A stretch of DNA of 64,000 bases, taken from IMG/VR virus record IMGVR_UViG_3300025138_000016, one strand, 5' to 3'. This document shows positions 28,191-52,053 of the stretch, piece by piece; the stretch's first letter is position 1, and each line of letters starts with the position of its first letter. Origin of the DNA: a virus. Both the position numbers and the translations under genes were made by a program. The notes under the pieces were generated by a model. It was not told the origin of the DNA. It saw only the letters and a list, made by a program, of their open reading frames with translations, and made no database searches.

Positions 28191-28799
28191 TTAATCTCCA
28201 GATTGCAACTCTTTTCCAAAATGAAAGATCCTAGAATCAGAGCTATAACTAAACCATCCTGTAGCGATATACTTAACACTCTTTAAGTCAGGTGTACTAG
28301 CATGGTAGTGTGTATAGGCTGCTGGCCAATAAATTAATGAGCCGGCTTCAGGCTTAAATTCTATATCATGCTGAGGGAATATTGTCCTACCACCTTCAGG
28401 TACATCATTTAAATATATCATCCATACCATAAATCTTGAACTGGATAATTCTGAATTACCTTGCTCAGTATGTAAGCCTGTAAAACCTCCACCTGGGTTT
28501 GCTTTTTGAAACTTAATATGTTCTAAGTGATGCCAATGCTCATTATTACCTTCCCAGTCATCAGGCTTATTAGCCTTAATAGCATCACATATTAAATCGG
28601 TTGCAGGCTCTAATGATTGAAAGTTAACAGGAAAGATACTTATATCATTTCTGTGATCATTATTATCAACAAATATTCCTTTTGGTCTTTCGACATCAGG
28701 TGCGAAGTATTCTGATTTTGTTTCAATCGCTGCTATAATATCCTTACAATCTTGTCTTGAGATTGCTTCAGGTATTATTTGTATAAAGTTCTTAGACAT
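28191..28799 (-). CDS. 2OG-Fe(II) oxygenase (prolyl-4-hydroxylase-like)
   Basis: HTE, WMIYLNDV..GG.T.F, WPAAYTHYH and KYIATGW motifs. Confidence 0.9.
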   Translation of the reverse strand: MSKNFIQIIPEAISRQDCKDIIAAIETKSEYFAPDVERPKGIFVDNNDHRNDISIFPVNFQSLEPATDLICDAIKANKPDDWEGNNEHWHHLEHIKFQKANPGGGFTGLHTEQGNSELSSSRFMVWMIYLNDVPEGGRTIFPQHDIEFKPEAGSLIYWPAAYTHYHASTPDLKSVKYIATGWFSYSSDSRIFHFGKELQSGD

Positions 28800-29436
28800 A
28801 ATATTGTAATTGTTCCTCAGTACATATTGCTTTTAGTTCATTACACTTTGAGCATTTCATACAATGCTTCTTATTACCTTCAAAGCATACGTAAATAAGC
28901 TTCTTTAATTGATCAGGTAACATTTGATATTGTTCTTGTTTACTAAGATGGGCAAGAGGTGCTTGAAAAGAGAGAGATAAATCAACTGTTGCAGCTGCTT
29001 TAACATAACCCTCGTACTGTGCTTCACCAAACTCATGGAAGCTATCTCCTGCTGTATCATTAGGTGTTAGTTTACCACCATTATGACCAAAGTAAACAGC
29101 TTGAACTATATTAGTAATAGCTAAGTTAAAAGCTATTGTTGCCCATTGCTGATGCATTGGAGGAAAGCCATTATAATTAAATGTCTTTTTATAATGCTCG
29201 TGTGACGCTTCCCTATTAAACAAATAGCCTGAAGCAGGATTATAATCAGTATGTATAGTTGTTACTTCAACTCCAAGCAGTTTAGCTTTTTGTTGTATAG
29301 TATTTATTTCTCCAGGATTAGATTTAATATGAAAGCAATAAGGTTCATATCCATTCTTCTTTAAATGATATACTAATGCTGTTGATTCAACTCCACCTGA
29401 AAATGGTACTATTATACTATAGTTACGCAGCATCAT
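28792..29436 (-). CDS. QueC-like PP-loop ATPase (second, divergent copy)
   Basis: FSGGVEST PP-loop, APLAHLSK and C-x6-HC-x2-C-x2-C zinc site. Confidence 0.75.
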   Translation of the reverse strand: MMLRNYSIIVPFSGGVESTALVYHLKKNGYEPYCFHIKSNPGEINTIQQKAKLLGVEVTTIHTDYNPASGYLFNREASHEHYKKTFNYNGFPPMHQQWATIAFNLAITNIVQAVYFGHNGGKLTPNDTAGDSFHEFGEAQYEGYVKAAATVDLSLSFQAPLAHLSKQEQYQMLPDQLKKLIYVCFEGNKKHCMKCSKCNELKAICTEEQLQYYV

Positions 29437-29593
29437 TTGATGTATCAGGATGTGAGACATTCATTTCGATATATGCTTTCATAAATCTTCTCACTTCGCG
29501 AGACACAGACGTATCGTTTGCTTTACATGCATGCTTGAAGTCTTTCTTAACTTCTGGGCATACTTTGATAAGCATCTGTACTTTCTCATCCAT
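29423..29593 (-). CDS. Ribbon-helix-helix (Arc/CopG-like) DNA-binding protein (56 aa)
   Basis: Not in the ORF track. MDEKVQMLIKVCPEVKKDFKHACKANDTSVSREVRRFMKAYIE...; beta-alpha-alpha pattern and GAGG RBS. Confidence 0.75.
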   Translation of the reverse strand: MDEKVQMLIKVCPEVKKDFKHACKANDTSVSREVRRFMKAYIEMNVSHPDTSNDAA

Positions 29594-29728: not shown

Positions 29729-31063
29729 GCCCTTACCAGCGTCCGTCTTATCAAAGACGGGCGTATCTTCAACCAAATCATCCTGAGCAGTCTGCTCTAC
29801 ATCATAAAGCTTCATCTTCGCTCTATCCACCCCAACTACAAATCGTCTATTATAATTAGGATCTGAATATCTATTCTTTAACTGCTTAAATAATATCTGA
29901 GCTAAGTCTTCTAGTTCTTCAGTACTTATCATAGCAAACATAAAGTCAGCAGTAGCAGGTAGTCCAAACGATTCAGAAGTATCTTCTAGTCCAACATCAG
30001 ACGATGTATAACCAGATCTAGTTACCTGCGTAGCAGATACAATAGGTACATTAAACTCAACAGCTAAGCCTCTAAGCTCTTCAGCAATAGACTTAACAAT
30101 AGTATATGAGTTAGCACTTGCACCTTTAACTCTAGCACTCATACATATATTAAGATAATCAATATAGATTATATCAGGTATGAATTGCTTCTTAATTTTA
30201 AGCTCTTGAAGTAAATGTCTAAAGTGACCAGCATGAGCGCCTGCAGTAGGATACTCTTTAACAATAAGTTTACCGCTAGTCTTAGAAGATACTCTACCCA
30301 TCTTCTTCTGATAGGCTTCTCTAGGTAGCATTTTTAATTCATCAATAGTAGTATTAAGTAAGTTAGCATCTATACGCTCAGCTATTCGCTCTTCAGCCAT
30401 TTCCATAGTAATGTATAATACATTAAGGCCTTGCATTAGATTAGCAGCAGCACAGTGACACATAAAGAGAGACTTACCTACACCAGTACCAGCCATAGCT
30501 ATATTTAAAGTCTTTCTATTTAAACCGCCTTGAGTGATACGATTAAGATAATCTATATCAAAAGGTACCTTAACTTCTTTCTTCTGATAGAAGTCAAATC
30601 GCTCTTCAGCATCATCAATAAAGTCATGCCCGATATGATTATCAAACGATACAGATAAAGCATCGGATAGCATCTGAGGTAGAGCACCTTTATCTTCATT
30701 AGTAGTACCATCTAAAATTTGTATACCATCCATGATAGCATTATAGACTGCTTTCTCTTGACAGAACTTCTCAGTACTATCTACTACCCACTCAGTATCT
30801 TTCTCTTCAGAGGGTTTAAGTTCTTTAATATAGGTATCAGCTTCTAGAGCTATATCATCAGACATTCCGCCTGTATTAGACATCTCAATAGCTAAAGCGT
30901 CCTGACTAGGACATAGGTTATATTTTTCATGATACTCAGCAATACAATTAAAGAGTTTCTTCTCTACTATGTTACTAAAGTATTCAGCTTTAAGGAAAGG
31001 TATACACTTACGAGTATACTCATCGTTAAATACTAGGTTACTTATTATAGTTTTTTCTATCAT
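29699..31063 (-). CDS. 41: Replicative DNA helicase (T4 gp41-like)
   Basis: AGTGVGKS, YITMEMAEE, IDYLNI, ATQ, SESFGLPATAD and KQLKNRY motifs. Confidence 0.97.
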   Translation of the reverse strand: MIEKTIISNLVFNDEYTRKCIPFLKAEYFSNIVEKKLFNCIAEYHEKYNLCPSQDALAIEMSNTGGMSDDIALEADTYIKELKPSEEKDTEWVVDSTEKFCQEKAVYNAIMDGIQILDGTTNEDKGALPQMLSDALSVSFDNHIGHDFIDDAEERFDFYQKKEVKVPFDIDYLNRITQGGLNRKTLNIAMAGTGVGKSLFMCHCAAANLMQGLNVLYITMEMAEERIAERIDANLLNTTIDELKMLPREAYQKKMGRVSSKTSGKLIVKEYPTAGAHAGHFRHLLQELKIKKQFIPDIIYIDYLNICMSARVKGASANSYTIVKSIAEELRGLAVEFNVPIVSATQVTRSGYTSSDVGLEDTSESFGLPATADFMFAMISTEELEDLAQILFKQLKNRYSDPNYNRRFVVGVDRAKMKLYDVEQTAQDDLVEDTPVFDKTDAGKGLVSKFNDFI

Positions 31064-31653
31064 CGTTTAAAAGACGCATTAAATGAGATTGATATTCTCG
31101 GTTCATCGGTAGCTTTTTGCTCAGGAACACTATGCTCCAACCATCCAGGCCATATAAACAAGTCGCCGCTTTTAGGGTTAAACTTTTGCTCTTGCTCCCA
31201 TCTATTAAGGAAGCCTTCACCGCCTGCCCACCCTTTGATTATAGCGTAGAACGGGCTTCGGATCAAGAAAGGACTAGAATCACTATCAGTGTAGATATAA
31301 ACAGTACCCGAAAGTAAACTTCTACCGTGGTCGTGCCAACAGTGGTGAATACCTTCACTGTAGACATTATACCATGCCTGAATGCCATCAGCATCAAGTT
31401 TAGCAGCGAGGTCCGGGTTAGTATCGAGACAAGTCCCAACATACCCTTTCGCGAATTTGAGGATTTCATTTATTATATCTTCCTTATGTTTAACACCCAC
31501 TAATCCATCTTCATCATAGAATGAAGTATAGTTAGTCTTGTCAGGGGATTTACTATTACGTAATGATAAGATGCTTTGTCGAATTTCTTCTAAGTTAAGA
31601 CTCGACTGCTCCGTCAACATTGGTATCGGAAATAAGTCCTTCATCTTCTTCAC
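31060..31653 (-). CDS. 2OG-Fe(II) oxygenase (TIGR02466-like)
   Basis: WYNVY...HDH..S.LSGTVY, WPGWLEHSV and RISISFN motifs. Confidence 0.88.
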   Translation of the reverse strand: MKKMKDLFPIPMLTEQSSLNLEEIRQSILSLRNSKSPDKTNYTSFYDEDGLVGVKHKEDIINEILKFAKGYVGTCLDTNPDLAAKLDADGIQAWYNVYSEGIHHCWHDHGRSLLSGTVYIYTDSDSSPFLIRSPFYAIIKGWAGGEGFLNRWEQEQKFNPKSGDLFIWPGWLEHSVPEQKATDEPRISISFNASFKR

Positions 31654-41926: not shown

Positions 41927-42931
41927 TTACTTAGGATTCGTTGCAACTTTCTTTTTCTTTAACTTCTTTTCATCAGCGGTTGCACTAGCGCCAATAGAAG
42001 CCAGATCAGCTAGTGATCCACCGAATACATATGAACCTACATGCTGTAATTGCATCCAAGGACATAGCCATATATTCATATCTAAATTATTAACCCATTG
42101 ACAGAACATATAATCTTCTGAAAGGTATCTATTAGTATAGGTCTCTCTTGCGATACCAGTACGTTTTTGATCAGCAGATAAGAATGACTTAACTTCGTCA
42201 GGAGTAGCTTCTGGATTAGCTTCAAAGAAAGCTTCCATCTCTTGTTCTAAGTTTTGATACTTATCATCAATAAGAGCATCAAAGTAGGCCATGATCTCTC
42301 TACTGCCATCGAACTCAGCTGTTCTTACATGGTCAGGCTTATACATAAGGTTAGGATAAGCTTCGTTATATCTCTCAAATGTCTCTCTACGAATCATCAT
42401 GAAGCCAGTTCCACCTTCTAATACCTTAGCAGGCATATCTAGTTTAATCTGGTTACCACCCTCTTTAGGATTGAATACATAGTCACCTACATACTTACCT
42501 AACACTTCTGGGTCTTCATCAGCTACACCTTTATCAACAGCATGCTTAATTTTTTCCCATGAAATACATTTCTTAGGATATGGTCCGCACATTACATCAT
42601 GAGGGTTACCATCATTCAGTTCATCATGTCCGTCTATCATTGCTAGCATAGCAATAACATCATTAGCGTTAAAGCCAATATCACTATCAATAAACATCAA
42701 GTGAGTACAATCAGATCTCATAAACTCATCTGCACAATAGTTACGTGCTCTTGTGATAAGAGATTCATTAAAAAGATAGTAGAATTTTATCTCAATGCCG
42801 TAAGCTTTAGCTAGCGCTGATAAGTCGTTAGTCGACTTACAGAACATTCCTGCACATTGACCACCGTACATCGGTGCTGCAACGAAGAGCTTTTTAGTTC
42901 TAAGTTCTTCTATTTGAATTTGTATATTCAT
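41927..42931 (-). CDS. GT-A-fold (GT2-like) glycosyltransferase
   Basis: PMYGG, ESLITRARN, HLMFIDSDI (DxD), GTGFMMI and YLSEDYMFC motifs. Confidence 0.85.
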   Translation of the reverse strand: MNIQIQIEELRTKKLFVAAPMYGGQCAGMFCKSTNDLSALAKAYGIEIKFYYLFNESLITRARNYCADEFMRSDCTHLMFIDSDIGFNANDVIAMLAMIDGHDELNDGNPHDVMCGPYPKKCISWEKIKHAVDKGVADEDPEVLGKYVGDYVFNPKEGGNQIKLDMPAKVLEGGTGFMMIRRETFERYNEAYPNLMYKPDHVRTAEFDGSREIMAYFDALIDDKYQNLEQEMEAFFEANPEATPDEVKSFLSADQKRTGIARETYTNRYLSEDYMFCQWVNNLDMNIWLCPWMQLQHVGSYVFGGSLADLASIGASATADEKKLKKKKVATNPK

Positions 42932-42933
42932 TC

Positions 42934-43374
42934 TTAGCTTTCTACCTTCATTACGATTAAGTCAGCAACGTTAGTTCCAGGTTGGAAGAAACACTCACCG
43001 CCGTTAGCAATTAACTGACCGGAAATAAGACCTTTAAAGCCGGGCTCTAACATGGTAGTAGGTATACTACAACCACCAGCTTGTAATTGCTTATTAACAA
43101 TCATCATTCCGACATGACCTTCTGGTATATTAGCATATACATCAGATGTAAACTCGTACGTTCCTGGGAACATATGATAGATCTCTCTTTCTTTATCAGG
43201 GTCACCTGGGTCAATCATAGTTTGAAGCTCATAAGTCTCTCTAGCGAGCTCTTGATCGTCATTAATAACAAATGGGTTACCTTGATAACCTTTAATTGTC
43301 TTTGCGCTAATTGGTACTGAGTAACTTGTACCTTCGTCTGCACCATTTACTAGTGCTGTTGGATCTACTAACAT
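42934..43374 (-). CDS. Degenerate dCTP deaminase/dUTPase-fold paralogue
   Basis: PGTYEFT, EPGFKG and VADLIV align with the neighbouring dcd-like gene, but the RS and D motifs are lost. Confidence 0.65.
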   Translation of the reverse strand: MLVDPTALVNGADEGTSYSVPISAKTIKGYQGNPFVINDDQELARETYELQTMIDPGDPDKEREIYHMFPGTYEFTSDVYANIPEGHVGMMIVNKQLQAGGCSIPTTMLEPGFKGLISGQLIANGGECFFQPGTNVADLIVMKVES

Positions 43375-43875
43375 TTATTTCTCCTGTTTATATTTTTTAT
43401 CATGCTCTTTGCCTAAACCATAATCACCATCATACATTGAGAGTGATTCAGCCTCGAATAATAAGAACTGACCGAGTCGAGTTCCTTCTTTAGTTTTAAA
43501 TGGTCCAGAAGTGACATGTAGAGCCCCTGCCATTATACCCTGATAACCAGAGTCGTAAAGTCCTGAAGTTAAATAGACACCATTTCTATTCAACGTTGAT
43601 CTAGTAATAACAAAGCCCGCTTCACCTTCAGCTATGCTGACGATATTCTTAAACGTAACTTCGTAAGTACCAATCGGTAAATTGTAGTATCCATCTGCGC
43701 CTGACGCGACTTCAACTGAACCTCTATGCTGCTTCTTATCTTCATCAATAAGAAACTCAGAGTCATTTATAGAAAATATTTTATCTAATCTTAGATCTAC
43801 TGCATTAGGTTGAATGTCTTTAGGTTCGACATTAGTAAGGGAGGATGTATTTTTTTCACTTGCGATATTAATCAT
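43375..43875 (-). CDS. dCTP deaminase/dUTPase family protein
   Basis: IQPNAVDLRL, TRSTLNRNG, YDSGYQG, RLGQF and YDGDYG motifs. Confidence 0.88.
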   Translation of the reverse strand: MINIASEKNTSSLTNVEPKDIQPNAVDLRLDKIFSINDSEFLIDEDKKQHRGSVEVASGADGYYNLPIGTYEVTFKNIVSIAEGEAGFVITRSTLNRNGVYLTSGLYDSGYQGIMAGALHVTSGPFKTKEGTRLGQFLLFEAESLSMYDGDYGLGKEHDKKYKQEK

Positions 43876-44510
43876 TATATACTACCAAAATAATAAGGGT
43901 TTTCTTTAGTACTAAAACTACTTATATGATATAGTTCATTCCTCTCAAAGTCAATCCTGAAAGCCTTATTAGGTTCAGTAGGACTACTTCCTGGGAACTT
44001 AGTACTGGATATATTTAGCTGATCATCTATGAACATAGGTGATATTTCATTACGAAAAATAAATATTTCACCTTCGTCATATTGAAGACAACTATAAGTA
44101 CCATCAACATTATCCAATTGTCGATAGCCATGAGAAATAGCTTCATGTATTAAAGCTGTATCCCATTCAAGGTCAGATTCATATGTCTTCTTTAGAGACT
44201 TAATACAATCTTCCTTTATAATACCGTTGTGCCATAGAAGATCTGCTCCTTCCCTTCGTACGCTAGGGTGGATACTTTCTATGGCCGAAGCTGCGGTAGT
44301 AGGTGCCTGGATGTGTGCTACATAATACATCCCTCGTTCGGTCTCCAGACCGTCTAATGAGAATGGCCCCATACATTTTCGCTTCGTAACCAATTCTTTC
44401 GTTTTCAGACTATATTCCGATAACGAATGTGAGTGCTGACCTCTGTAAGCATTAAGTTCAGCTAACTCTAATAGTTTATCTAATTCTCTACTGCCAAATA
44501 TTGCGCACAT
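43875..44510 (-). CDS. Stand-alone class II (Ntn) glutamine amidotransferase
   Basis: MCAIFG (N-terminal Cys nucleophile), YRG, AHIQAPT, HP, WHNGII and DT motifs; directly downstream of queC. Confidence 0.88.
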   Translation of the reverse strand: MCAIFGSRELDKLLELAELNAYRGQHSHSLSEYSLKTKELVTKRKCMGPFSLDGLETERGMYYVAHIQAPTTAASAIESIHPSVRREGADLLWHNGIIKEDCIKSLKKTYESDLEWDTALIHEAISHGYRQLDNVDGTYSCLQYDEGEIFIFRNEISPMFIDDQLNISSTKFPGSSPTEPNKAFRIDFERNELYHISSFSTKENPYYFGSI

Positions 44511-44513
44511 AAT

Positions 44514-45272
44514 TTAAATATATTGTTGAGTTATTTTAATCCAATCAAAGCCTTCTACATATTCAATAGGATCGGCTCGATCAGCTTTTACAAAGTTCAT
44601 GATTCTTTCGGCACAAGTTGGACAGGTACCGCACGATTTACCATCTACTGGATTATAACATGAAATCGTATTAGAAAGCAACTCGAATTGTTCCATTTCA
44701 ATCGCAAGATCAATCTCTTGCTTTTTACTTAACTGGCTAAATGGAGCTACTATCTCAACACTATGCGTTCTATTTTGTTCAGCAACGTTATTTAGGCTAT
44801 CTACAAAGCGCTGAGACGTATCCCAATACCCATACTCGTCATGAACTTGAAGTCCAGTAAACACATGAGAGGCTTTCTTTACTTCAGCTAAAGACATAGT
44901 CATCGATAACATAATTAAATTCCTAAAAGGTACGTAAGTAGGTGGTTGCGGATCACCTAATACATCTTGTATAGTAGGCATAGTGATATCAGTACCACCA
45001 ATATTAGCTGACATCGGTCTAGCTATATCACCTAGTACATTTAAGTCTAATATCCTATGACGTATACCTAACTTATTACATAAAGCAAAAGCTCTTTCTA
45101 ACTCTACTCTCTGCTTCTGACCATAGTCATAGCTTACAGCAGACACTCGCTCTGCACCGTACTTGGCGACCAGTAACATAGTTACTACAGATGAATCTAA
45201 ACCACCTGAGAGCACAGCTAATACATTCTTATCTGTATTCGGTAGACTATCTAATGCTTCTTGTAATGTCAT
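44514..45272 (-). CDS. queC: 7-cyano-7-deazaguanine (preQ0) synthase
   Basis: LSGGLDSS, YDYGQKQ, TYVPFRN, YWD and SCY...CGTCPTCAER motifs. Confidence 0.96.
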   Translation of the reverse strand: MTLQEALDSLPNTDKNVLAVLSGGLDSSVVTMLLVAKYGAERVSAVSYDYGQKQRVELERAFALCNKLGIRHRILDLNVLGDIARPMSANIGGTDITMPTIQDVLGDPQPPTYVPFRNLIMLSMTMSLAEVKKASHVFTGLQVHDEYGYWDTSQRFVDSLNNVAEQNRTHSVEIVAPFSQLSKKQEIDLAIEMEQFELLSNTISCYNPVDGKSCGTCPTCAERIMNFVKADRADPIEYVEGFDWIKITQQYI

Positions 45273-45463
45273 GTTAGTAATTGTTTCACTCCGAGTACGT
45301 AATTCTCTGCCGCATCTTCTGCCCATGCTTCTGATTTGCCAGGATACATTTCTTGTTTAACTTCAGCACCATCTACAAAGAAGGTACACCCATATACTCC
45401 GCCTTCAAAGATAACTCTCGCCATCTTATTAGCATCAACGTATTCGCTTAAAAATTGAGCCAT
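45269..45463 (-). CDS. Small conserved phage protein
   Basis: KSEAWAEDAAENYVLG motif; coupled to its neighbours on both sides. Confidence 0.75.
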   Translation of the reverse strand: MAQFLSEYVDANKMARVIFEGGVYGCTFFVDGAEVKQEMYPGKSEAWAEDAAENYVLGVKQLLT

Positions 45464-46395
45464 TATTGCCTCGCTGTTTTTCTATGAGGCTCATCGCTAT
45501 CAACTAAACCTAATGCATAAGCATCTATAAGGTCTTGCGACGTCGCTCTAATAGGGTTAATATCAATACCACCACGTCTAGTATATAGACATGCTACTAA
45601 AATTTCTGTATCGTCAGCAAGCATATCTTTTAATCTCTTAAATACACACTCACAAATCTCTTCATGGAAGTGATTCTCTTTTCTCATACTAACAATATAA
45701 CGCATTAACGATTCAGGCGTTACACAATCTTCACCACTAATGTGGATATAGATATCACCCCAATCAGGCTGGTTAGTAATCCTACAGTTAGATCTTAGAG
45801 CACTAGAGGTAACTTGGAAAGGCATAAAGCCTAACATAGGAGCTCTATCTAAAGTATCAGGGCTCTCTTCGTACTCAATGAACTCAATATCTTCTACTTC
45901 AATAAGAGATTCTAATCTTACAAAGTGACCAGTAATAGGAGCTACAGGTAGCTCGTTCTGCTCATCATAATGAAACGATACATCTATCTCACATTCCAAA
46001 GCTTCAGTTAAGTCTGTAGTAATCTTTCTCTCTACATTTCGTATAGCATTAGTAATGGTACTACCCATCTTATGCATATTGTATGAGTTCATATATAACT
46101 TAAGTGACTTAGACTCAACAATACATTCACTATCAGAAGGGTATACTAATTTAACTACACCGCTAACAGGAAAGCCATTCTCTAATAGGAATGATACTTC
46201 ATAACAATTCCAAGAGTCAAAGCCTACGAATGGTAAGTCATCGTCATCTATCTTATATTCTGTTCTATTAAGTACTCTAGGTACAGGTACAAGTAAACTA
46301 CTATCAGCTCTATCAGGAGTAACATAAGGGTTAACTATGCTCCCGTCACCAGCTTTACCTAAGTGCTTACTTACAATTCTATCTAATTCTTTCAT
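45463..46395 (-). CDS. queF: NADPH-dependent preQ0 reductase, bimodular YqcD type
   Basis: WNCYEVS, VESKSLKLY QueF motif, LRSNCRITNQPDWG (catalytic Cys/Asp), HFHEE and YTRRGGIDINP. Confidence 0.95.
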   Translation of the reverse strand: MKELDRIVSKHLGKAGDGSIVNPYVTPDRADSSLLVPVPRVLNRTEYKIDDDDLPFVGFDSWNCYEVSFLLENGFPVSGVVKLVYPSDSECIVESKSLKLYMNSYNMHKMGSTITNAIRNVERKITTDLTEALECEIDVSFHYDEQNELPVAPITGHFVRLESLIEVEDIEFIEYEESPDTLDRAPMLGFMPFQVTSSALRSNCRITNQPDWGDIYIHISGEDCVTPESLMRYIVSMRKENHFHEEICECVFKRLKDMLADDTEILVACLYTRRGGIDINPIRATSQDLIDAYALGLVDSDEPHRKTARQ

Positions 46396-46923
46396 TTAAC
46401 TAATTACCTTTAAAACTTGATCTACTCTTTCTCTTACTGAGCCTGATACCGTAATATGTTCTCTAGGTAACTCAGTAATAAAGCCTTCAAATAGATCGCT
46501 TATTTCATCTCTGAAGTCAAGACTTATAGATCTTACTCCGTCATCAACTATATCAAACTCAGGTCTAATATAAAAAATATAATCATAACTACTAACTAAT
46601 CTATCATAGATAGCTTTAACCTTATCTAAAGTCTTCTTACTTACTTTATTATGATTATGTAAGTATGCAGTATAAACTAATCCATCTAAAGCAGTACGAT
46701 CAGTTAACATATGATCATACATAAACACATTAGCGATATGCTTCTGCATAATAAGTATCTGAGTTAGATCAGAACCAGCTTCATTTATATCAAAGCCCAT
46801 CTCTTTAATCTCTCTCGTCACTTCGTCACAAACAGTATACTGACTTAGCATCCTCTCAGATCTAAGAGCATTAAGTAAAGTAGTCTTACCTACTGATTGC
46901 GCTCCAGTAATACCTATTCTCAT
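46396..46923 (-). CDS. P-loop nucleotide-kinase-like protein (AAA_28/NadR-like)
   Basis: ITGAQSVGKTT, TDRTALD, DDGVRS and SGSVRER motifs. Confidence 0.85.
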   Translation of the reverse strand: MRIGITGAQSVGKTTLLNALRSERMLSQYTVCDEVTREIKEMGFDINEAGSDLTQILIMQKHIANVFMYDHMLTDRTALDGLVYTAYLHNHNKVSKKTLDKVKAIYDRLVSSYDYIFYIRPEFDIVDDGVRSISLDFRDEISDLFEGFITELPREHITVSGSVRERVDQVLKVIS

Positions 46924-47429
46924 AATTTACCTACAAAAAATATTTGCCATAACTTAACAGCCTCATGCCTTAAGTCTTCAGTTAATTCATCTACAGTAGT
47001 ACCTTTATGAATAATATAATCACTAAACAGTTCAGGAGTACCACCGTCAACAGTATCATCTACTCTATGAATAAGTACACCAGTACTTTCTAATCCAAGC
47101 TCAATAGCTTTCTTCTGAGGATGAATACCTTTTAATTCAGGATACTTAAATATGTCACCAGGATGCACATTATAAATCTTAGCTTTAATCTCAGAAGCTT
47201 TAAGAAGTCTCCAATACCCATGTAAGGTAACTAGAGTATCTTCATGAAGGTTCTTTAATAAGCATTCTATTTCTTTAGCAGGAGATATCTGAACAGAGCT
47301 CAGTCTTTTATCCCAATCAGTACGTACTTCATCACAAAGAACGAGATCAGGCTCAATGCCTATTTTATCTATAACCTCAGCTAACTCTTTACCCGAGTTG
47401 CTGAACAACGCTACCCATTTCTTCATCAA
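46920..47429 (-). CDS. PurN-like formyltransferase (DpdN-like)
   Basis: ALFSNSG, LHGYWRL, YNVHPG, YPELKG and STGVLIHRVDDTVDGG motifs. Confidence 0.88.
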   Translation of the reverse strand: MMKKWVALFSNSGKELAEVIDKIGIEPDLVLCDEVRTDWDKRLSSVQISPAKEIECLLKNLHEDTLVTLHGYWRLLKASEIKAKIYNVHPGDIFKYPELKGIHPQKKAIELGLESTGVLIHRVDDTVDGGTPELFSDYIIHKGTTVDELTEDLRHEAVKLWQIFFVGKL

Positions 47430-48216
47430 TATTTGCCCTGAATTTCATTATATTATAGAAGACTTTCGCTGCATTTTCAACAGGTTCTTCCATTAGTTCA
47501 AATAGCTTAACAGACTCTTTATCTTCTAGTCCGAATACACCATCAGTTTCAACATAATCTATACCCATCATACCATGTATAACAGGATTAGACGTATCAA
47601 TAGTATCGATGAAGTCATAGTCTTTACCTTTATAGAGAGCAAACTCCTGAGGTAAACCACAACCTAATAAATGATGAGGCTTATTATAATTAATAGCCTT
47701 CTCTTTAATAAGTAGATCAATTAAATGCTTTCTACCTTTCATCCAGCTATGATACTTAGTCGGCTCATCAGGATATATTTCCTCGAACCAACTATAATCA
47801 AATGAGATAGCAATAATGTCTGCCTCACTAGCCATAAACTTATAACAGTCAACAATCTCTTGCTCTGTCTTACCTTGAACAACTCCAATCTTAGACCCTT
47901 TTAAGTCTTCGTACTTAGACATCCAGCTGTTCCAATTAGCGATAGTACCATCAATGTCTTCTAATACATCTGGTACTATATAAGCAGAAGGTTTGAGCTG
48001 CTTACACCATGCCGCAAAGTCATCAGCATCGAATGCTGTACCTAGTTCAAAGATACTATTATCTAATATAATATATCTACCAGCTTTCTTCGCATCAATA
48101 AAATGATTATAGTAAGTTCTATTCTCTTCAAACAGATGAACTAAAGCATAATCGTAATCAGTTACTTTTGATACTTGCTTTATAATCTCTAAAGGTGCTT
48201 CGTGGGCTACTCTCAT
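47389..48216 (-). CDS. TGT-fold 7-deazaguanine transglycosylase-like protein (divergent DpdA-like)
   Basis: ILDNSIFE, VPDVL, GVVQG, HHLLG and IDTSNP map onto TGT catalytic motifs; no CxCxxC zinc site; embedded among que genes. Confidence 0.75.
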   Translation of the reverse strand: MRVAHEAPLEIIKQVSKVTDYDYALVHLFEENRTYYNHFIDAKKAGRYIILDNSIFELGTAFDADDFAAWCKQLKPSAYIVPDVLEDIDGTIANWNSWMSKYEDLKGSKIGVVQGKTEQEIVDCYKFMASEADIIAISFDYSWFEEIYPDEPTKYHSWMKGRKHLIDLLIKEKAINYNKPHHLLGCGLPQEFALYKGKDYDFIDTIDTSNPVIHGMMGIDYVETDGVFGLEDKESVKLFELMEEPVENAAKVFYNIMKFRANIDEEMGSVVQQLG

Positions 48217-48428
48217 TCAAAATATCCTTCTAATACCTCGATCTTATCATGCAGCTCTGCAATCTTACCGAGTTCGCCGTCTATTGTTTCTAGTAAGTCA
48301 GGATGCTCAGCAACACCGACTCCTTTCTGCATTAAATTTTCAACATTAATAATATGTTGACCGATAACAGAAGTATAATATTGCTTCTGTACACTAATAA
48401 TTTTATCTCTCATGTCCTTATCTAACAT
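48213..48428 (-). CDS. Conserved phage hypothetical protein
   Basis: H..NVE.L....VGVAEHPD...TI..EL pattern. Confidence 0.8.
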   Translation of the reverse strand: MLDKDMRDKIISVQKQYYTSVIGQHIINVENLMQKGVGVAEHPDLLETIDGELGKIAELHDKIEVLEGYFE

Positions 48429-49183
48429 TATTTACTCGCAAATTGTTGCTGTATCATAATGTCGTCAAAGAACTCTTTCTTAACATCAGGCTCGTTAAAT
48501 CTACCTTTAAGTACAGTAGTCTGCGTTAAAGATGAATGAGCCATAATGCCTCTGTTCTCACAACAACCATGCGTAGCGTGAATATATACAGCTAGGTCTT
48601 CAGTACCAGTAGCTGCATGCAGCTCTTTAACGATAGCATTACATAGTTCTTCTTGTAATGTACCTCTACGAGCTACCCATTGAGCGATTCTTGTATACTT
48701 AGATAAACCAATAACTTTACCATTAGGTATAATACCAATATAGGCAGTTCCTACAACAGGTTGATGATGATGAGAGCAAACAGATCTTAGTTCAGATCTT
48801 ACTACTAACATACCTTCATACTTGTCAGGTCCATCATTAGGGAATGCAGTCGCAGCAGGCTTATCAGTATACCTACCAGCCATAAGCTCATTGATATACA
48901 TCTTAGCTAGACGTCTAGGAGTACCCATCGCGTTAGGATCGTTCCTCCAATCAATTAAAAGTCTATGCAGTACTTCTTCGAAAGCTTCTGCTACTTCATC
49001 AATAAGATTCTCTCTTCCAGCGTCAGTCATTATCTGAGCTATATTATCATTAGACCAGGCACGTAGACCGTCTTTATGTATTAGGTTCCAATACAATTCA
49101 TGCACTTTATTCTCGCTTGAATCATGTTGATGATAAGTATCGTTTTTTATTACAGGAGCAGTTCTTGCTTTAATATTTTCCAT
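48428..49183 (-). CDS. folE: GTP cyclohydrolase I
   Basis: TPRRLAKMY, SVCSHHHQP, VIGLSKYTR, LQEEL and HGCCENRG motifs. Confidence 0.96.
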   Translation of the reverse strand: MENIKARTAPVIKNDTYHQHDSSENKVHELYWNLIHKDGLRAWSNDNIAQIMTDAGRENLIDEVAEAFEEVLHRLLIDWRNDPNAMGTPRRLAKMYINELMAGRYTDKPAATAFPNDGPDKYEGMLVVRSELRSVCSHHHQPVVGTAYIGIIPNGKVIGLSKYTRIAQWVARRGTLQEELCNAIVKELHAATGTEDLAVYIHATHGCCENRGIMAHSSLTQTTVLKGRFNEPDVKKEFFDDIMIQQQFASK

Positions 49184-49206: not shown

Positions 49207-49662
49207 TTATGAATTCAAGTCTCTTTGATAGATAGCGCTATTAGCTCCGTGCTCAGCTACCTCGCAGGATTCAACCCAGCATCTACCATCTGACTTATCG
49301 TTAATTAATTTCTGAGCAAAGTTAAAAGCATGCTCAGCAAACTTCTCGGCACCTACGCCATCGAATATTCTAATCTCAGCTAGACCTATCTCTTCTAGAT
49401 GCTCTAACTCGCTTCGCATAGGGTCAGCTTTATCGACAACAGTCTTATGATCAAAGCTATCTTCGAGCCATCTCTTTAGGTCTTTTAGACCGCCAAAGTC
49501 AACTGCCCAGTTCTTATTATCAAGCTCATGACAACCGAATTTAAAAGTAAAGGCAAGGCTATAACCGTGCAGTAAATGACAATGCGAATGATCAGCATTA
49601 GGTTGACGGAACACTGCGCTTAAGCCAATGTTATGTCCGTAGTGTTTAGTACTATAGTACAT
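49207..49662 (-). CDS. queD: 6-carboxy-5,6,7,8-tetrahydropterin synthase
   Basis: SHCHLLHGY, VDFGGLK, FDH, AE and VAEHGANSAIY motifs. Confidence 0.93.
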   Translation of the reverse strand: MYYSTKHYGHNIGLSAVFRQPNADHSHCHLLHGYSLAFTFKFGCHELDNKNWAVDFGGLKDLKRWLEDSFDHKTVVDKADPMRSELEHLEEIGLAEIRIFDGVGAEKFAEHAFNFAQKLINDKSDGRCWVESCEVAEHGANSAIYQRDLNS

Positions 49663-50125
49663 CTTTATCCTCCCACCAGAAGTTTATCCATCTCTCGTCT
49701 TCATTACGAGAAATAGTTTTATGAAAAAAATCAGGCATAATATCCTGATCCGTATTTAAATATAGACAAGCAATGGATAAGTTCTCTTTAGGAAAGTCTC
49801 CAAACGTTTCTATAACTTGCGACAGAGTAGTCCCTGTATCAATTAGGTCATCAACTAATAATATATTTTGCCCTGCATTCATATCAGCAGGTATAGTTTC
49901 ATTGATCTCTTTATCCTCAAAGTCTCTTGTTGACCAAGTTAATGGTACAAGAGGTATCTCAAGAATGTATGATAGTCTAACCGCGAGTGGAAGTCCACCT
50001 CTTGCTAATCCAACTATCTTATCGTAATTAGTTCCTACAGCATTTATATTATTTACTAACGAAGTTATACCTTCATCGAAATCCTTTTTACTGTACTCTA
50101 TTTCTTTATTATCTTTTCCAAACAT
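49652..50125 (-). CDS. Type I phosphoribosyltransferase (xanthine/guanine PRTase-like)
   Basis: VGLARGGL, LLVDDLIDTGTT (PRPP motif), PDF and WINFWWE. Confidence 0.92.
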   Translation of the reverse strand: MFGKDNKEIEYSKKDFDEGITSLVNNINAVGTNYDKIVGLARGGLPLAVRLSYILEIPLVPLTWSTRDFEDKEINETIPADMNAGQNILLVDDLIDTGTTLSQVIETFGDFPKENLSIACLYLNTDQDIMPDFFHKTISRNEDERWINFWWEDKDVL

Positions 50126-50649
50126 TATTCATACCAAGTTACTAGCACGACTCTATTACCCTTTAGAACCTTACTGACTGAATGCTGAACATTCGGTCCG
50201 TATGCTATAGTTTCACCAACCTTCTGCTTAACGATGACGGGTATAATCTCATCGCCTGGCTTATAATCTTTCTCGTTATATCTGTTTAAGACAGAGCCAT
50301 CTTCGGGGACTTGCATATCAGATTTATAGTGAGGTTCATATACTATAATATCTCCACCATCAAGATCATTTGCCTCGACGAGTGTTATTGCAGTCTTCTT
50401 AACTACATCGTTATTATCAGAATGCTTACGAGTAAACGCTCCTTCGATATAGTCTAAGAAATATTGAGAATGAATCTTAAGTTCATCAGTCTCTAATTCC
50501 ATTATAAATTTATCACTTGGTACAATACGTTGAGTAAGATAGTGCAAGTTATAAAATCTCTTTATAGTAACTATTGGTAGAGAGTAATACAACTCTTTCA
50601 TCTTATTATGTACGCTCTCTTCAAGCATACCTTCGCTTTTATACACCAA
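50125..50649 (-). CDS. 2OG-Fe(II) oxygenase-like protein
   Basis: FTRKHSD (HxD), LDGG and QHSVSKV.KGNRVVLVTW. Confidence 0.8.
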   Translation of the reverse strand: MVYKSEGMLEESVHNKMKELYYSLPIVTIKRFYNLHYLTQRIVPSDKFIMELETDELKIHSQYFLDYIEGAFTRKHSDNNDVVKKTAITLVEANDLDGGDIIVYEPHYKSDMQVPEDGSVLNRYNEKDYKPGDEIIPVIVKQKVGETIAYGPNVQHSVSKVLKGNRVVLVTWYE

Positions 50650-51526
50650 TTAAATTACCCCATAAGTAAGTATGAACTCTAGCAGCTACATTATAGCCTC
50701 TCTTAAAGGCTTCAGCAGCAACGTCTCCATCTACTAGCTTCTGACCTTCTACAGTAGCACCAACAGGCATTATCCAAATAGGCCAATGCACGTGATGGTC
50801 TCTGAAAGCTTCAATAGTATCTTCGAGCTCTTTCCATGTCTCAGGCTTACCATCTACAACAAACTTAAGTTGCCCTGTGTTAGTAAACATCTGATACTTC
50901 TCTACAACTTCAGGACGAATAGCTCTCTTAGTCGTTTCTCCTGATACGTTAAATAATTTAGGGCTACATGATATAAATAATTCACTGCCCCATACATCTC
51001 TATACTCTTGCCAGAACTCTACTACCTCTGGTCTTATTGTTTGAGTACCATTAGTTTCATACGTTACAAACCTAGGATAGTCTCTTTCGTTTATCCAATG
51101 CTTCATCATATTCATACTACATATCTGAGCATGCTTCATAAAAGGCTCACCGCCAGTAAAGCACATATGTCTATCATTCCATTTACCATTATTCCATTTA
51201 TTAGTAAATCTTTCTCTTACCTTATCAGCTATCTCTACAGCTGTACCATTACGTTGTAAGTGCTTAAACTTCTTAGACCATGAATAAGAACTATCACATC
51301 CGAATTCAAATACAGGAAGCTCTTCCATATTCTTAATACCTATAAGATCAATATCTTTATAAGGTAGTTGATAGGTGTCTGGGTTAGTAGGATCTTCTTG
51401 ACCGAATCCATTACATTGTAAGTTACATAGAAAGAATCTCATCCATGCAGTCGGTCGTCCAGTATATTGACCTTCACCTTGAATAGAGTCGAATATCTCT
51501 GAGTAGTTATAAGTCTGCTCTGTCAT
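50639..51526 (-). CDS. queE: 7-carboxy-7-deazaguanine synthase (radical SAM)
   Basis: SEIFDSIQGEG, CNLQC...CDS (expanded Cys motif), FTGGEP, ETNG, SPKL and RVHTYLWG. Confidence 0.95.
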   Translation of the reverse strand: MTEQTYNYSEIFDSIQGEGQYTGRPTAWMRFFLCNLQCNGFGQEDPTNPDTYQLPYKDIDLIGIKNMEELPVFEFGCDSSYSWSKKFKHLQRNGTAVEIADKVRERFTNKWNNGKWNDRHMCFTGGEPFMKHAQICSMNMMKHWINERDYPRFVTYETNGTQTIRPEVVEFWQEYRDVWGSELFISCSPKLFNVSGETTKRAIRPEVVEKYQMFTNTGQLKFVVDGKPETWKELEDTIEAFRDHHVHWPIWIMPVGATVEGQKLVDGDVAAEAFKRGYNVAARVHTYLWGNLIGV

Positions 51527-52053
51527 AATTCGTCCATTACTTGCTGAACCCATTTTATTACTCTAGGGTAAGTTAATGTAGGTTCATTATCTTCATCAAT
51601 AGGTAGACCGAAGAAGGTTGATTCATCAGCTAAGCCGTTAGATTGCTCCCAACGATAGCCATCCGTAGATGTTAGTCCTATTAGCCTTCCACCATTCTGT
51701 ACAACAACACCAGCTAACATACCAAGACCATCTACAAAGTTATTAGCATAGCCAACTTGATCACCTAGCCCATATAGCGCTACAGTCTGACCAGTAAAGT
51801 CAATTGCTTCAAATTTAGATATAGAGTTGTTCCAGTCGTCTGAGTATTCACCATAGGTATCTAATCTAGGTTCACACCAAGTAGGTATTCCGAGTATAAG
51901 GAGATCTGCTTTCCAGTCTTCTGGCTTAGCATCTTCGACGTTTATTATGTCTTTTGAATGAAAGGCGTTTAGGATCACATCACCAACTAGTTTAGTGAAA
52001 CCAGTTTCGGTACCATAAATTAGCTTTACGCCTATCTCTGAGTTGAGACTCAT
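51523..52053 (-). CDS. Long-chain flavodoxin
   Basis: YGTETGFT, LGIPTW, YGLGDQVGY..NFVDG and F.GLPIDEDNE..LT..RV..W motifs. Confidence 0.93.
   Translation of the reverse strand: MSLNSEIGVKLIYGTETGFTKLVGDVILNAFHSKDIINVEDAKPEDWKADLLILGIPTWCEPRLDTYGEYSDDWNNSISKFEAIDFTGQTVALYGLGDQVGYANNFVDGLGMLAGVVVQNGGRLIGLTSTDGYRWEQSNGLADESTFFGLPIDEDNEPTLTYPRVIKWVQQVMDEL

Follow-up and report, generated by a model that had tools for sequence, protein, structure and literature searches.

A 64,000-nucleotide stretch of viral DNA (IMG/VR record IMGVR_UViG_3300025138_000016; "the window" below means this whole stretch) carries a minus-strand gene whose 275-residue product is very probably a member of the DpdA3 family of 7-deazaguanine transglycosylases and the base-exchange catalyst of the gene cluster in which it lies. 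By analogy with known transglycosylases, this enzyme would exchange guanine for a 7-deazaguanine base, with DNA as the substrate; the probability of this whole proposal is put at about 0.6. The DpdA3 family was named and published by Cui, Hutinet et al. (NAR 2023; PMC10516641). This kind of enzyme is already described, and the gene adds one member from an uncultured marine T4-like phage.

47389..48216, minus strand: DpdA3-family 7-deazaguanine transglycosylase, 275 aa (phrog_19058, identity to homologues, AlphaFold2 model and Foldseek fold).

The open reading frame (ORF) runs from ATG at 48216-48214 to TAA at 47391-47389. The initial annotation had described a 275-aa ORF with five motifs resembling those of tRNA-guanine transglycosylase (TGT) in their usual order. 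All of them are present, namely LDNS (D52), VPDV (D83), GVVQG (Q114), HLLG (L184/G185) and IDTS (D207), and the ORF is located on the minus strand. The gene does overlap that of the formyltransferase (DpdN), as also claimed there: the 3' end of the DpdA3 gene covers the DpdN start by 38 nt if the ATG at 47426 is used, or by 41 nt from TTG. The DpdN frame begins TTG-ATG, and its conserved PurN-type N-terminus 'MKKWVALFSNSG' is inside the overlap. At the other end, the DpdA3 start codon overlaps the stop of an upstream 71-aa ORF as ATGA.

The protein matches phrog_19058 (E 8e-52) and shows 55% identity over 95% of its length (E 1e-81) to YP_010114477 (gp206) of Flavobacterium phage immuto_2-6A, annotated as DpdA. 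Identity to gp056 of Campylobacter phage CP220 is 42% (E 1e-46), and to DpdA3 of Cellulophaga phage phiST (CGPG_00065) 24% (E 1e-3). In a Foldseek search of viral models (BFVD), rank 2 was taken by the 259-aa phiST protein M4SLA5 (TM 0.83/0.88, E 9e-17), whose length matches CGPG_00065. Replacement of 100% of G has been reported for CP220 (dADG), phiST (dDG) and immuto (fdPreQ1), and complete G replacement in virion DNA is known for cultured DpdA3 phages only; the neighbouring formyltransferase was named DpdN in the same work (PMC10516641). The role of likely base-insertion catalyst, proposed in the initial annotation, fits the published assignment of the 55%-identical homologue, which comes from a phage proven to carry fdPreQ1 in its DNA. 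The family is large, comprising 4,351 clusters at 90% and 3,385 at 50% identity, and none of those listed has a Pfam domain.

Pfam and NCBIfam profile searches with the protein gave no match, including PF01702 (TGT) and PF20314 (DUF6610). Among 66 diverse relatives (34-51% identity), 16 showed weak matches to DUF6610 (best E 8e-4) and three to PF01702. Links from sequence alone are faint but agree with one another. DUF6610 has been equated with DpdA4, the transglycosylases of archaeal viruses (PMC10516641), and the DUF6610 matches suggest relatedness to DpdA4, not membership. As judged from its sequence, with no Pfam match and without the zinc site and the large insertion, the protein is outside PF01702 proper. 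A hidden Markov model profile of 38 homologs found no TGT or DpdA match among PDB sequences, only chance matches with E > 0.2. With E. coli TGT as the query, tblastn against the phage collection returned only canonical TGTs, mostly unverified records, and no DpdA that could serve as a template. Megablast of the 8-kb deazaguanine cluster against phage genomes gave no match.

The AlphaFold2 model, built from the 38 homologs, has eight beta/alpha units (predicted local distance difference test score (pLDDT) 93.5, predicted template modelling score 0.90). All of the best 50 Foldseek matches to this model in the PDB are tRNA-guanine transglycosylases. VIA-align Z scores were 17.0 for archaeal TGT (ArcTGT, 1iq8), 16.8 for DpdA (7ui4) and 16.7 for Z. 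mobilis TGT, over 230-233 residues with a root-mean-square deviation of 3.0-3.3 A. The predicted fold is a TGT-type (beta/alpha)8 barrel. The initial annotation had claimed a TGT fold and named two contrary outcomes, a predicted fold other than a TGT-type barrel and Asp residues that do not superpose on the TGT active site; structure prediction and Foldseek gave the TGT-type barrel, and neither contrary outcome was found.

Many triosephosphate isomerase (TIM) barrels exceed Z 8 against the model, and these, with the missing Pfam and NCBIfam matches, could point to a barrel that is merely TGT-like and performs another reaction, such as that of a hydrolase or lyase on an intermediate of the pathway. 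Such an enzyme is the least probable of the explanations considered, since the TGT family holds every top rank, the TGT-specific residue set is invariant, and the pathway would otherwise have no insertion enzyme.

The residues proposed to take part in catalysis and base recognition by the DpdA3 protein are encoded as follows.

48061..48063, minus strand: codon of D52 (LDNS), proposed general acid/base; the F56 base gate follows at 48049-48051 (D52 invariant in 66/66; D-x3-[F/Y] motif, weak alignment).
47968..47970, minus strand: codon of D83 (VPDV), proposed base-recognition Asp (invariant in 66/66; proposed equivalence to TGT D156/DpdA D130 from topology).
47875..47877, minus strand: codon of Q114 (GVVQG), proposed base-recognition residue (aligned to E. 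coli TGT GIIQG).
47596..47598, minus strand: codon of D207 (IDTS), proposed nucleophile (invariant in 66/66; hhalign onto E. coli TGT D264).

Conservation was measured over the 66 relatives mentioned above. D52, D83, H182, L184, G185 and D207 are invariant in every one of them, so the five motifs are not chance matches. Position 114 is occupied by Q in 58 and by H in eight relatives, and position 56 by F in 52 and by Y in 13 (65/66 F or Y). These residues are alternatives at the equivalent positions of TGT (Gln and Tyr106) and DpdA (His181 and Phe99), and conservation supports the residue mapping.

The profile of the 66 sequences was aligned by hhalign with a profile of eight TGT sequences (E 1.8e-5, probability 78%). 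This alignment pairs GVVQG with GIIQG, KPHHLLG with KPRYLMG, and I-D207-T with F-D264-C ('DMFDC'). Against the single E. coli TGT sequence the family profile gave E 0.005-0.014 and a probability of 3-7%, too weak alone, and the global hhalign modes produced no usable DpdA3-TGT alignment. When the N-terminal half was aligned alone, D52...FELG was paired with D89...FSLG (D89/F93 of E. coli TGT) at E 0.34, not significant alone. D83 is located just after strand beta4 in the model; hhalign shifted this region by nine residues and did not place D83 onto D143 of E. coli TGT.

D264 of E. coli TGT is the nucleophile, with D280 as its equivalent in Z. mobilis TGT; in the latter, D102 is the general acid/base, with the base gate Y106 at +4, and D156 the base-recognition Asp. 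The initial annotation had placed the Asp residues on the TGT active site. This stands for D207, which according to the profile alignment matches the nucleophile Asp on beta8. D52 would match the acid/base Asp by the weaker alignment together with the D-x3-[F/Y] gate motif, and D83 is assigned to TGT D156/DpdA D130 by strand topology only. The loop after beta6 differs with the end-product, being ISFDYS in fdPreQ1-type proteins and ICFSGDY in CP220; by the topology of the model it would occupy the position of the TGT preQ1/preQ0 specificity switch.

The protein has only three Cys residues (71, 124 and 186), and no Cys is conserved in the last 65 residues across the family. The TGT zinc ligands CxCxxC...H are aligned by hhalign with a gap, 'EDKESV' and Y254. 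These alignments indicate that the enzyme is zinc-less at the canonical site, having lost the ligands and most of the subdomain but not the whole segment. The earlier claim that the zinc-binding subdomain is lacking is thus right for the four ligands, all absent, but not for the short remnant, a hairpin and the N255/F259 helix, which is kept at the C-terminus.

With Z. mobilis and E. coli TGT and P. horikoshii ArcTGT the protein shares the fold and the order of motifs on strands beta3-beta8 at 11-14% identity. In contrast to them, it has no N-terminal sheet, beta3/beta4 insertion or CxCxxC...H zinc site, and its chain is shorter by about 100 residues. The TIM barrel is also common with Salmonella Montevideo DpdA (7ui4), whose residues Asp95/Phe99, Asp130, His181, Leu236 and the nucleophile Asp256 (PMC10164549) would correspond to D52/F56, D83, Q114, L184 and D207. 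Bacterial DpdA differs in its 413 residues, a large insertion at beta8/alpha8 comprising about 30% of the protein, and its PF01702 match. It also needs the ParB-like ATPase DpdB and modifies less than 0.1% of G at specific sites (PMC10516641; PMC10164549), unlike the enzyme considered here.

The second line of evidence is gene linkage. The 7-deazaguanine cluster is located between gp46/def and gp45 and starts with flavodoxin, QueE, a 2-oxoglutarate (2OG) oxygenase, a purine-type phosphoribosyltransferase (PRTase), QueD, FolE, the small ORF and DpdA3. These are followed by the formyltransferase, an AAA_28 kinase, QueF, QueC, an N-terminal nucleophile (Ntn)-amidotransferase-like gene and a pair resembling dCTP deaminase (dcd) and dUTPase. 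The following cluster genes bear on the pathway.

44514..45326, minus strand: QueC, preQ0 synthase (PF06508, E 2e-50).
45463..46395, minus strand: bimodular QueF, preQ0 to preQ1 (PF14819 and PF14489).
46396..46923, minus strand: AAA_28 P-loop kinase of deoxynucleoside/dNMP-kinase fold (PF13521, E 4e-19; AlphaFold2 pLDDT 89).
46920..47426, minus strand: DpdN-type PurN-like formyltransferase (PF00551, E 1e-10; TIGR00639 PurN).
48213..48428, minus strand: small ORF of 71 aa, coupled to DpdA3 by ATGA (phrog_1811; in 9% of related loci).
48428..49183, minus strand: FolE, GTP cyclohydrolase I (PF01227, E 3e-38).
49207..49662, minus strand: QueD (PF01242, phrog_2389).
49652..50125, minus strand: 6-oxopurine-type PRTase (PF00156; best matches xanthine/guanine PRTases, PDB 1vdm purine PRTase E 7e-14).
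50639..51553, minus strand: QueE, radical S-adenosylmethionine enzyme (phrog_2076, E 2e-56).
51523-52053: flavodoxin (PF00258).

Linkage was assessed in 80 IMG/VR viral loci with DpdA3 relatives of at least 50% identity, and the percentages allow for contig ends. DpdA3 is accompanied by QueF in 100%, QueE in 95%, DpdN in 94%, FolE in 94% and QueD in 91% of these loci; the kinase (72%), QueC (68%) and the PRTase (65%) are less frequent. About a third of the loci have T4-like gp46/gp45 flanks. DpdN is immediately 3' of DpdA3 in 74 of the 80, and the stop and start codons mostly abut or overlap. Natural fusions of DpdA3 occur in metagenomes both with the formyltransferase (P0176 and P0200, 447 aa) and with QueF (P0273, P0274 and P0275, 531-568 aa). 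The fusions and the linkage tie DpdA3 to the enzymes that make and formylate preQ1. A complex prediction for DpdA3 and DpdN scored 0.01; its controls were not run, and it gives no answer, speaking neither for nor against binding. Two further extended proteins were seen: in P0128 the DpdA3 domain is followed by a NUMOD3 homing-endonuclease motif, and P0270 has DUF3310.

The fold, conserved residues, family membership and gene linkage are shown here by computation; the chemistry of the reaction, DNA as its substrate and the stage at which formylation occurs are inferred. Synthesis of preQ1 from GTP would be performed by FolE, QueD, QueE with flavodoxin, QueC and QueF. DpdN would then formylate preQ1, and DpdA3 would put the formylated base into the phage genome in place of guanine. 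The predicted product is DNA containing 7-(formylamino)methyl-7-deazaguanine (fdPreQ1), as in immuto_2-6A. By the TGT/DpdA analogy, D207 would attack C1' of a deoxyguanosine residue and expel guanine, with D52 as the acid/base. The Watson-Crick edge would be read by D83 and Q114, the base would be sandwiched by F56 and L184, and the incoming 7-deazaguanine would resolve the covalent intermediate.

The substrate could be sought among DNA, free nucleotides and tRNA. The initial annotation held that it cannot be read from the sequence, and this caution stands. The likeliest substrate is phage DNA, after or during replication, as published; post-replicative insertion into DNA is itself an inference of the 2023 paper (PMC10516641), and no later paper that settles the DpdA3 substrate was found in the literature. 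The characterised members of the TGT superfamily all act on polynucleotides, which argues for DNA (PMC10516641; PMC10164549). Also in favour of DNA, compact clusters (def, QueE, QueD, FolE, DpdA3, DpdN, QueF, QueC) without the kinase, the PRTase or another P-loop gene are found in 15 close relatives whose flanks are long enough to judge. The kinase-free compact loci include L014-L021, L033, L048, L070, L071 and L077, and many of them occupy the same gp46/gp45 site. The kinase and the PRTase are thus accessory, at least within the cluster.

A search of the complete immuto genome for canonical TGT (PF01702) found none, which leaves DpdA3 as the only TGT-fold candidate of that phage. This bears on a role in tRNA modification, in which DpdA3 would act on host or phage tRNA with preQ1 or a derivative, the DNA being modified otherwise or not at all. 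The fold and the catalytic residues are indeed common to tRNA TGTs. However, the DNA of immuto is fully substituted and this phage has no further TGT-fold gene, the 64-kb window was searched for tRNA genes and none was found, DpdA3 is without the zinc subdomain that TGTs use on tRNA, and its tight linkage to DpdN fits the DNA base actually found in immuto. A tRNA role is accordingly highly improbable, and even taken together with the other reactions discussed above it is very unlikely.

A more substantial alternative concerns free deoxynucleosides and deoxynucleotides. DpdA3 could be a TGT-fold 2'-deoxyribosyl base-exchange enzyme that acts on free dG, dGMP or dGTP and not on DNA. The product would be raised to the triphosphate by the deoxynucleoside kinase (dNK)-fold enzyme and cellular kinases, nucleoside triphosphate (NTP) hydrolases would deplete dGTP, and the modified base would enter DNA through the phage polymerase. 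Released guanine would be recycled by the purine PRTase to GMP/GTP for FolE. If true, modification of G would precede replication, which conflicts with the post-replicative model published for all 7-deazaguanine DNA. For Campylobacter phages, a 2019 paper had considered a modified-dGTP route or a 2'-deoxyribosyltransferase that had escaped detection.

Several observations weigh against DNA as the substrate of DpdA3, and most of them favour the nucleotide route. An orthologous AAA_28 kinase is found within one gene of DpdA3 in the window, in immuto (36% identity, E 6e-34) and in CP220 (35%, E 6e-32). It keeps this place although the final bases differ among the phages and the preQ genes of CP220 are located elsewhere. 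The top Foldseek matches of the kinase model (pLDDT as listed above) are deoxyadenosine kinase, deoxycytidine kinase, thymidylate kinase and the ribosylnicotinamide kinase of NadR, not the ParB-like DpdB. In phiST and in Chryseobacterium phage MA9V-3, AAA_18/AAA_33 P-loop proteins are encoded directly upstream of DpdA3. NTP hydrolases are also found near DpdA3: HD in CP220, PRA-PH in immuto, MazG in phiST, and DCD/dUTPase-like proteins in the window and MA9V-3. The kinase and PRTase frequencies in related loci (72% and 65%) point in the same direction. The DpdA3 protein itself is minimal and strongly acidic (isoelectric point 4.7, net charge about -20; family median 5.4), and is without the zinc subdomain and the nucleic-acid-contacting insertions, which account for about 30% of DpdA. 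The ADG nucleoside has been reported in CP220-infected cells, no DpdA3 member has ever been shown to be active, and the authors' attempts at reconstitution in E. coli failed (PMC10516641). Finally, the D52 and D83 equivalences come from weak alignment and topology, not from residue-level structural superposition.

These points are countered by others. The clusters of the 15 close relatives described above contain neither kinase nor PRTase nor an extra P-loop gene, and this compactness tempers the idea of a nucleotide route. The kinase family is also present in 89 Streptomyces phage records, and in Jay2Jay, the one examined, the gene is not beside deazaguanine genes. No enzyme of the TGT superfamily with a mononucleotide substrate is known, no dedicated dGTPase was identified in the window, and no DpdA3-kinase fusion occurred among the matches found. 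The 6-oxopurine PRTase is equally explained as salvage of the guanine freed by exchange. On balance, action on free nucleosides or nucleotides is possible but rather unlikely, and base exchange in phage DNA is preferred.

Three candidate interpretations involving the kinase were considered and set aside. Its function as a DpdB-like ATPase helper is disfavoured, since the fold of this P-loop neighbour matches small-molecule deoxynucleoside/dNMP kinases and DpdB is ParB-like. A kinase exclusive to DpdA3 phages is rejected, the homologues in the Streptomyces phage records being 26-30% identical. Fusion of DpdA3 with the kinase was suspected for P0199 and P0125, and their extensions gave no match to the profile of the kinase or of DpdN; a search for longer proteins gave QueF fusions only. 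The Streptomyces phages with a kinase homologue are of BE-cluster type, about 131-135 kb, and a methyltransferase gene adjoins in some records; the Jay2Jay homologue is located at L091 8986-9615, with no deazaguanine genes nearby.

The closest known system is that of immuto_2-6A. Both clusters have the order DpdA3, DpdN, AAA_28 kinase, QueF, with FolE, QueD, QueE and the PRTase upstream, and the same predicted product, fdPreQ1. The phage backbones differ, the window being T4-like with a family B gp43 polymerase and immuto having a family A polymerase. DpdA3 and DpdN overlap in the window, whereas in immuto a small ORF separates them. Compared with immuto, the window cluster adds the 2OG oxygenase, flavodoxin, the Ntn-amidotransferase-like gene and the dcd pair, and is without the MazG-like PRA-PH gene. 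CP220 gp056 and phiST CGPG_00065 represent the same minimal zinc-less barrel with a P-loop kinase-type neighbour in both cases; their end-products, dADG and dDG respectively (PMC10516641), differ from the predicted fdPreQ1.

All genes of the window are on the minus strand and constitute a T4-like module of replication and structural genes, among them those for gp43 family B polymerase, gp45 clamp, gp44/62 loader, RegA, UvsW, gp46/47, gp55 sigma factor, gp41, UvsX, gp23, gp22 and gp19. Identity of the polymerase to cyanomyophage gp43 is only about 50%, and the source is therefore taken to be an uncultured marine myophage. The GC content of the window is about 36%.

Some genes in and around the cluster (all on the minus strand) are less widespread in related loci. 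The Ntn-amidotransferase-like gene after QueC (43875-44510; phrog_12378, weak PurF/GATase_6 match) is present in about 27% of them, and a phrog_1574 gene that adjoins gp45 (41927-42931) in about 36%; both could perform extra tailoring steps. The tandem pair of dCTP-deaminase/dUTPase fold (42934-43875) occurs in about 31%. Its first gene most resembles archaeal-type dUTP pyrophosphatase, with a match (E 1e-27) that does not reach the family cut-off, and its second gene is degenerate. The window also has three 2OG-Fe(II) oxygenase genes (28191-28799, 31060-31653 and 50125-50649), the last of which overlaps the QueE stop within the cluster and is present in 15% of related loci. A second, divergent QueC-like PP-loop gene (28792-29460, 222 aa; phrog_1550, E 5e-15) is located 15 kb from the deazaguanine cluster and adjoins a 2OG-Fe(II) oxygenase gene. 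It could encode a paralog of QueC whose amidation or nitrile chemistry is different.

Distant DpdA3-like genes (23-28% identity) were noticed in Bacillus phage BSTP12 (L092:4896-5684), Chryseobacterium phage MA9V-3 (L094:5968-6762) and Weizmannia phage Youna2 (H142). Those of BSTP12 and MA9V-3 are within deazaguanine clusters, and in MA9V-3 a DCD-fold gene is three genes away. Public records label these genes 'NadR', 'polynucleotide kinase', 'integrase' or hypothetical. They are probably unrecognised DpdA3-type systems in phages of Firmicutes and Bacteroidota.

Among 7-deazaguanine inserters, DpdA3 alone is linked to the complete replacement of G, and it has never been reconstituted. The analysis adds a map of the catalytic residues of this clade, shows what became of the zinc ligands, and reports DpdA3 fused to DpdN and to QueF, a kinase of dNK-type fold and compact clusters that have no kinase. 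Evidence on the substrate is two-sided, with a dNK-fold kinase and NTP hydrolases beside DpdA3 on one side, and kinase-free compact clusters and the QueF and DpdN fusions on the other. Through the annotation, a gene so far 'hypothetical' in this uncultured marine T4-like phage is assigned to DpdA3, with formyl-preQ1 predicted instead of G in the phage DNA. If true, such DNA would have consequences for restriction, for CRISPR targeting and for the sequencing of these phages.

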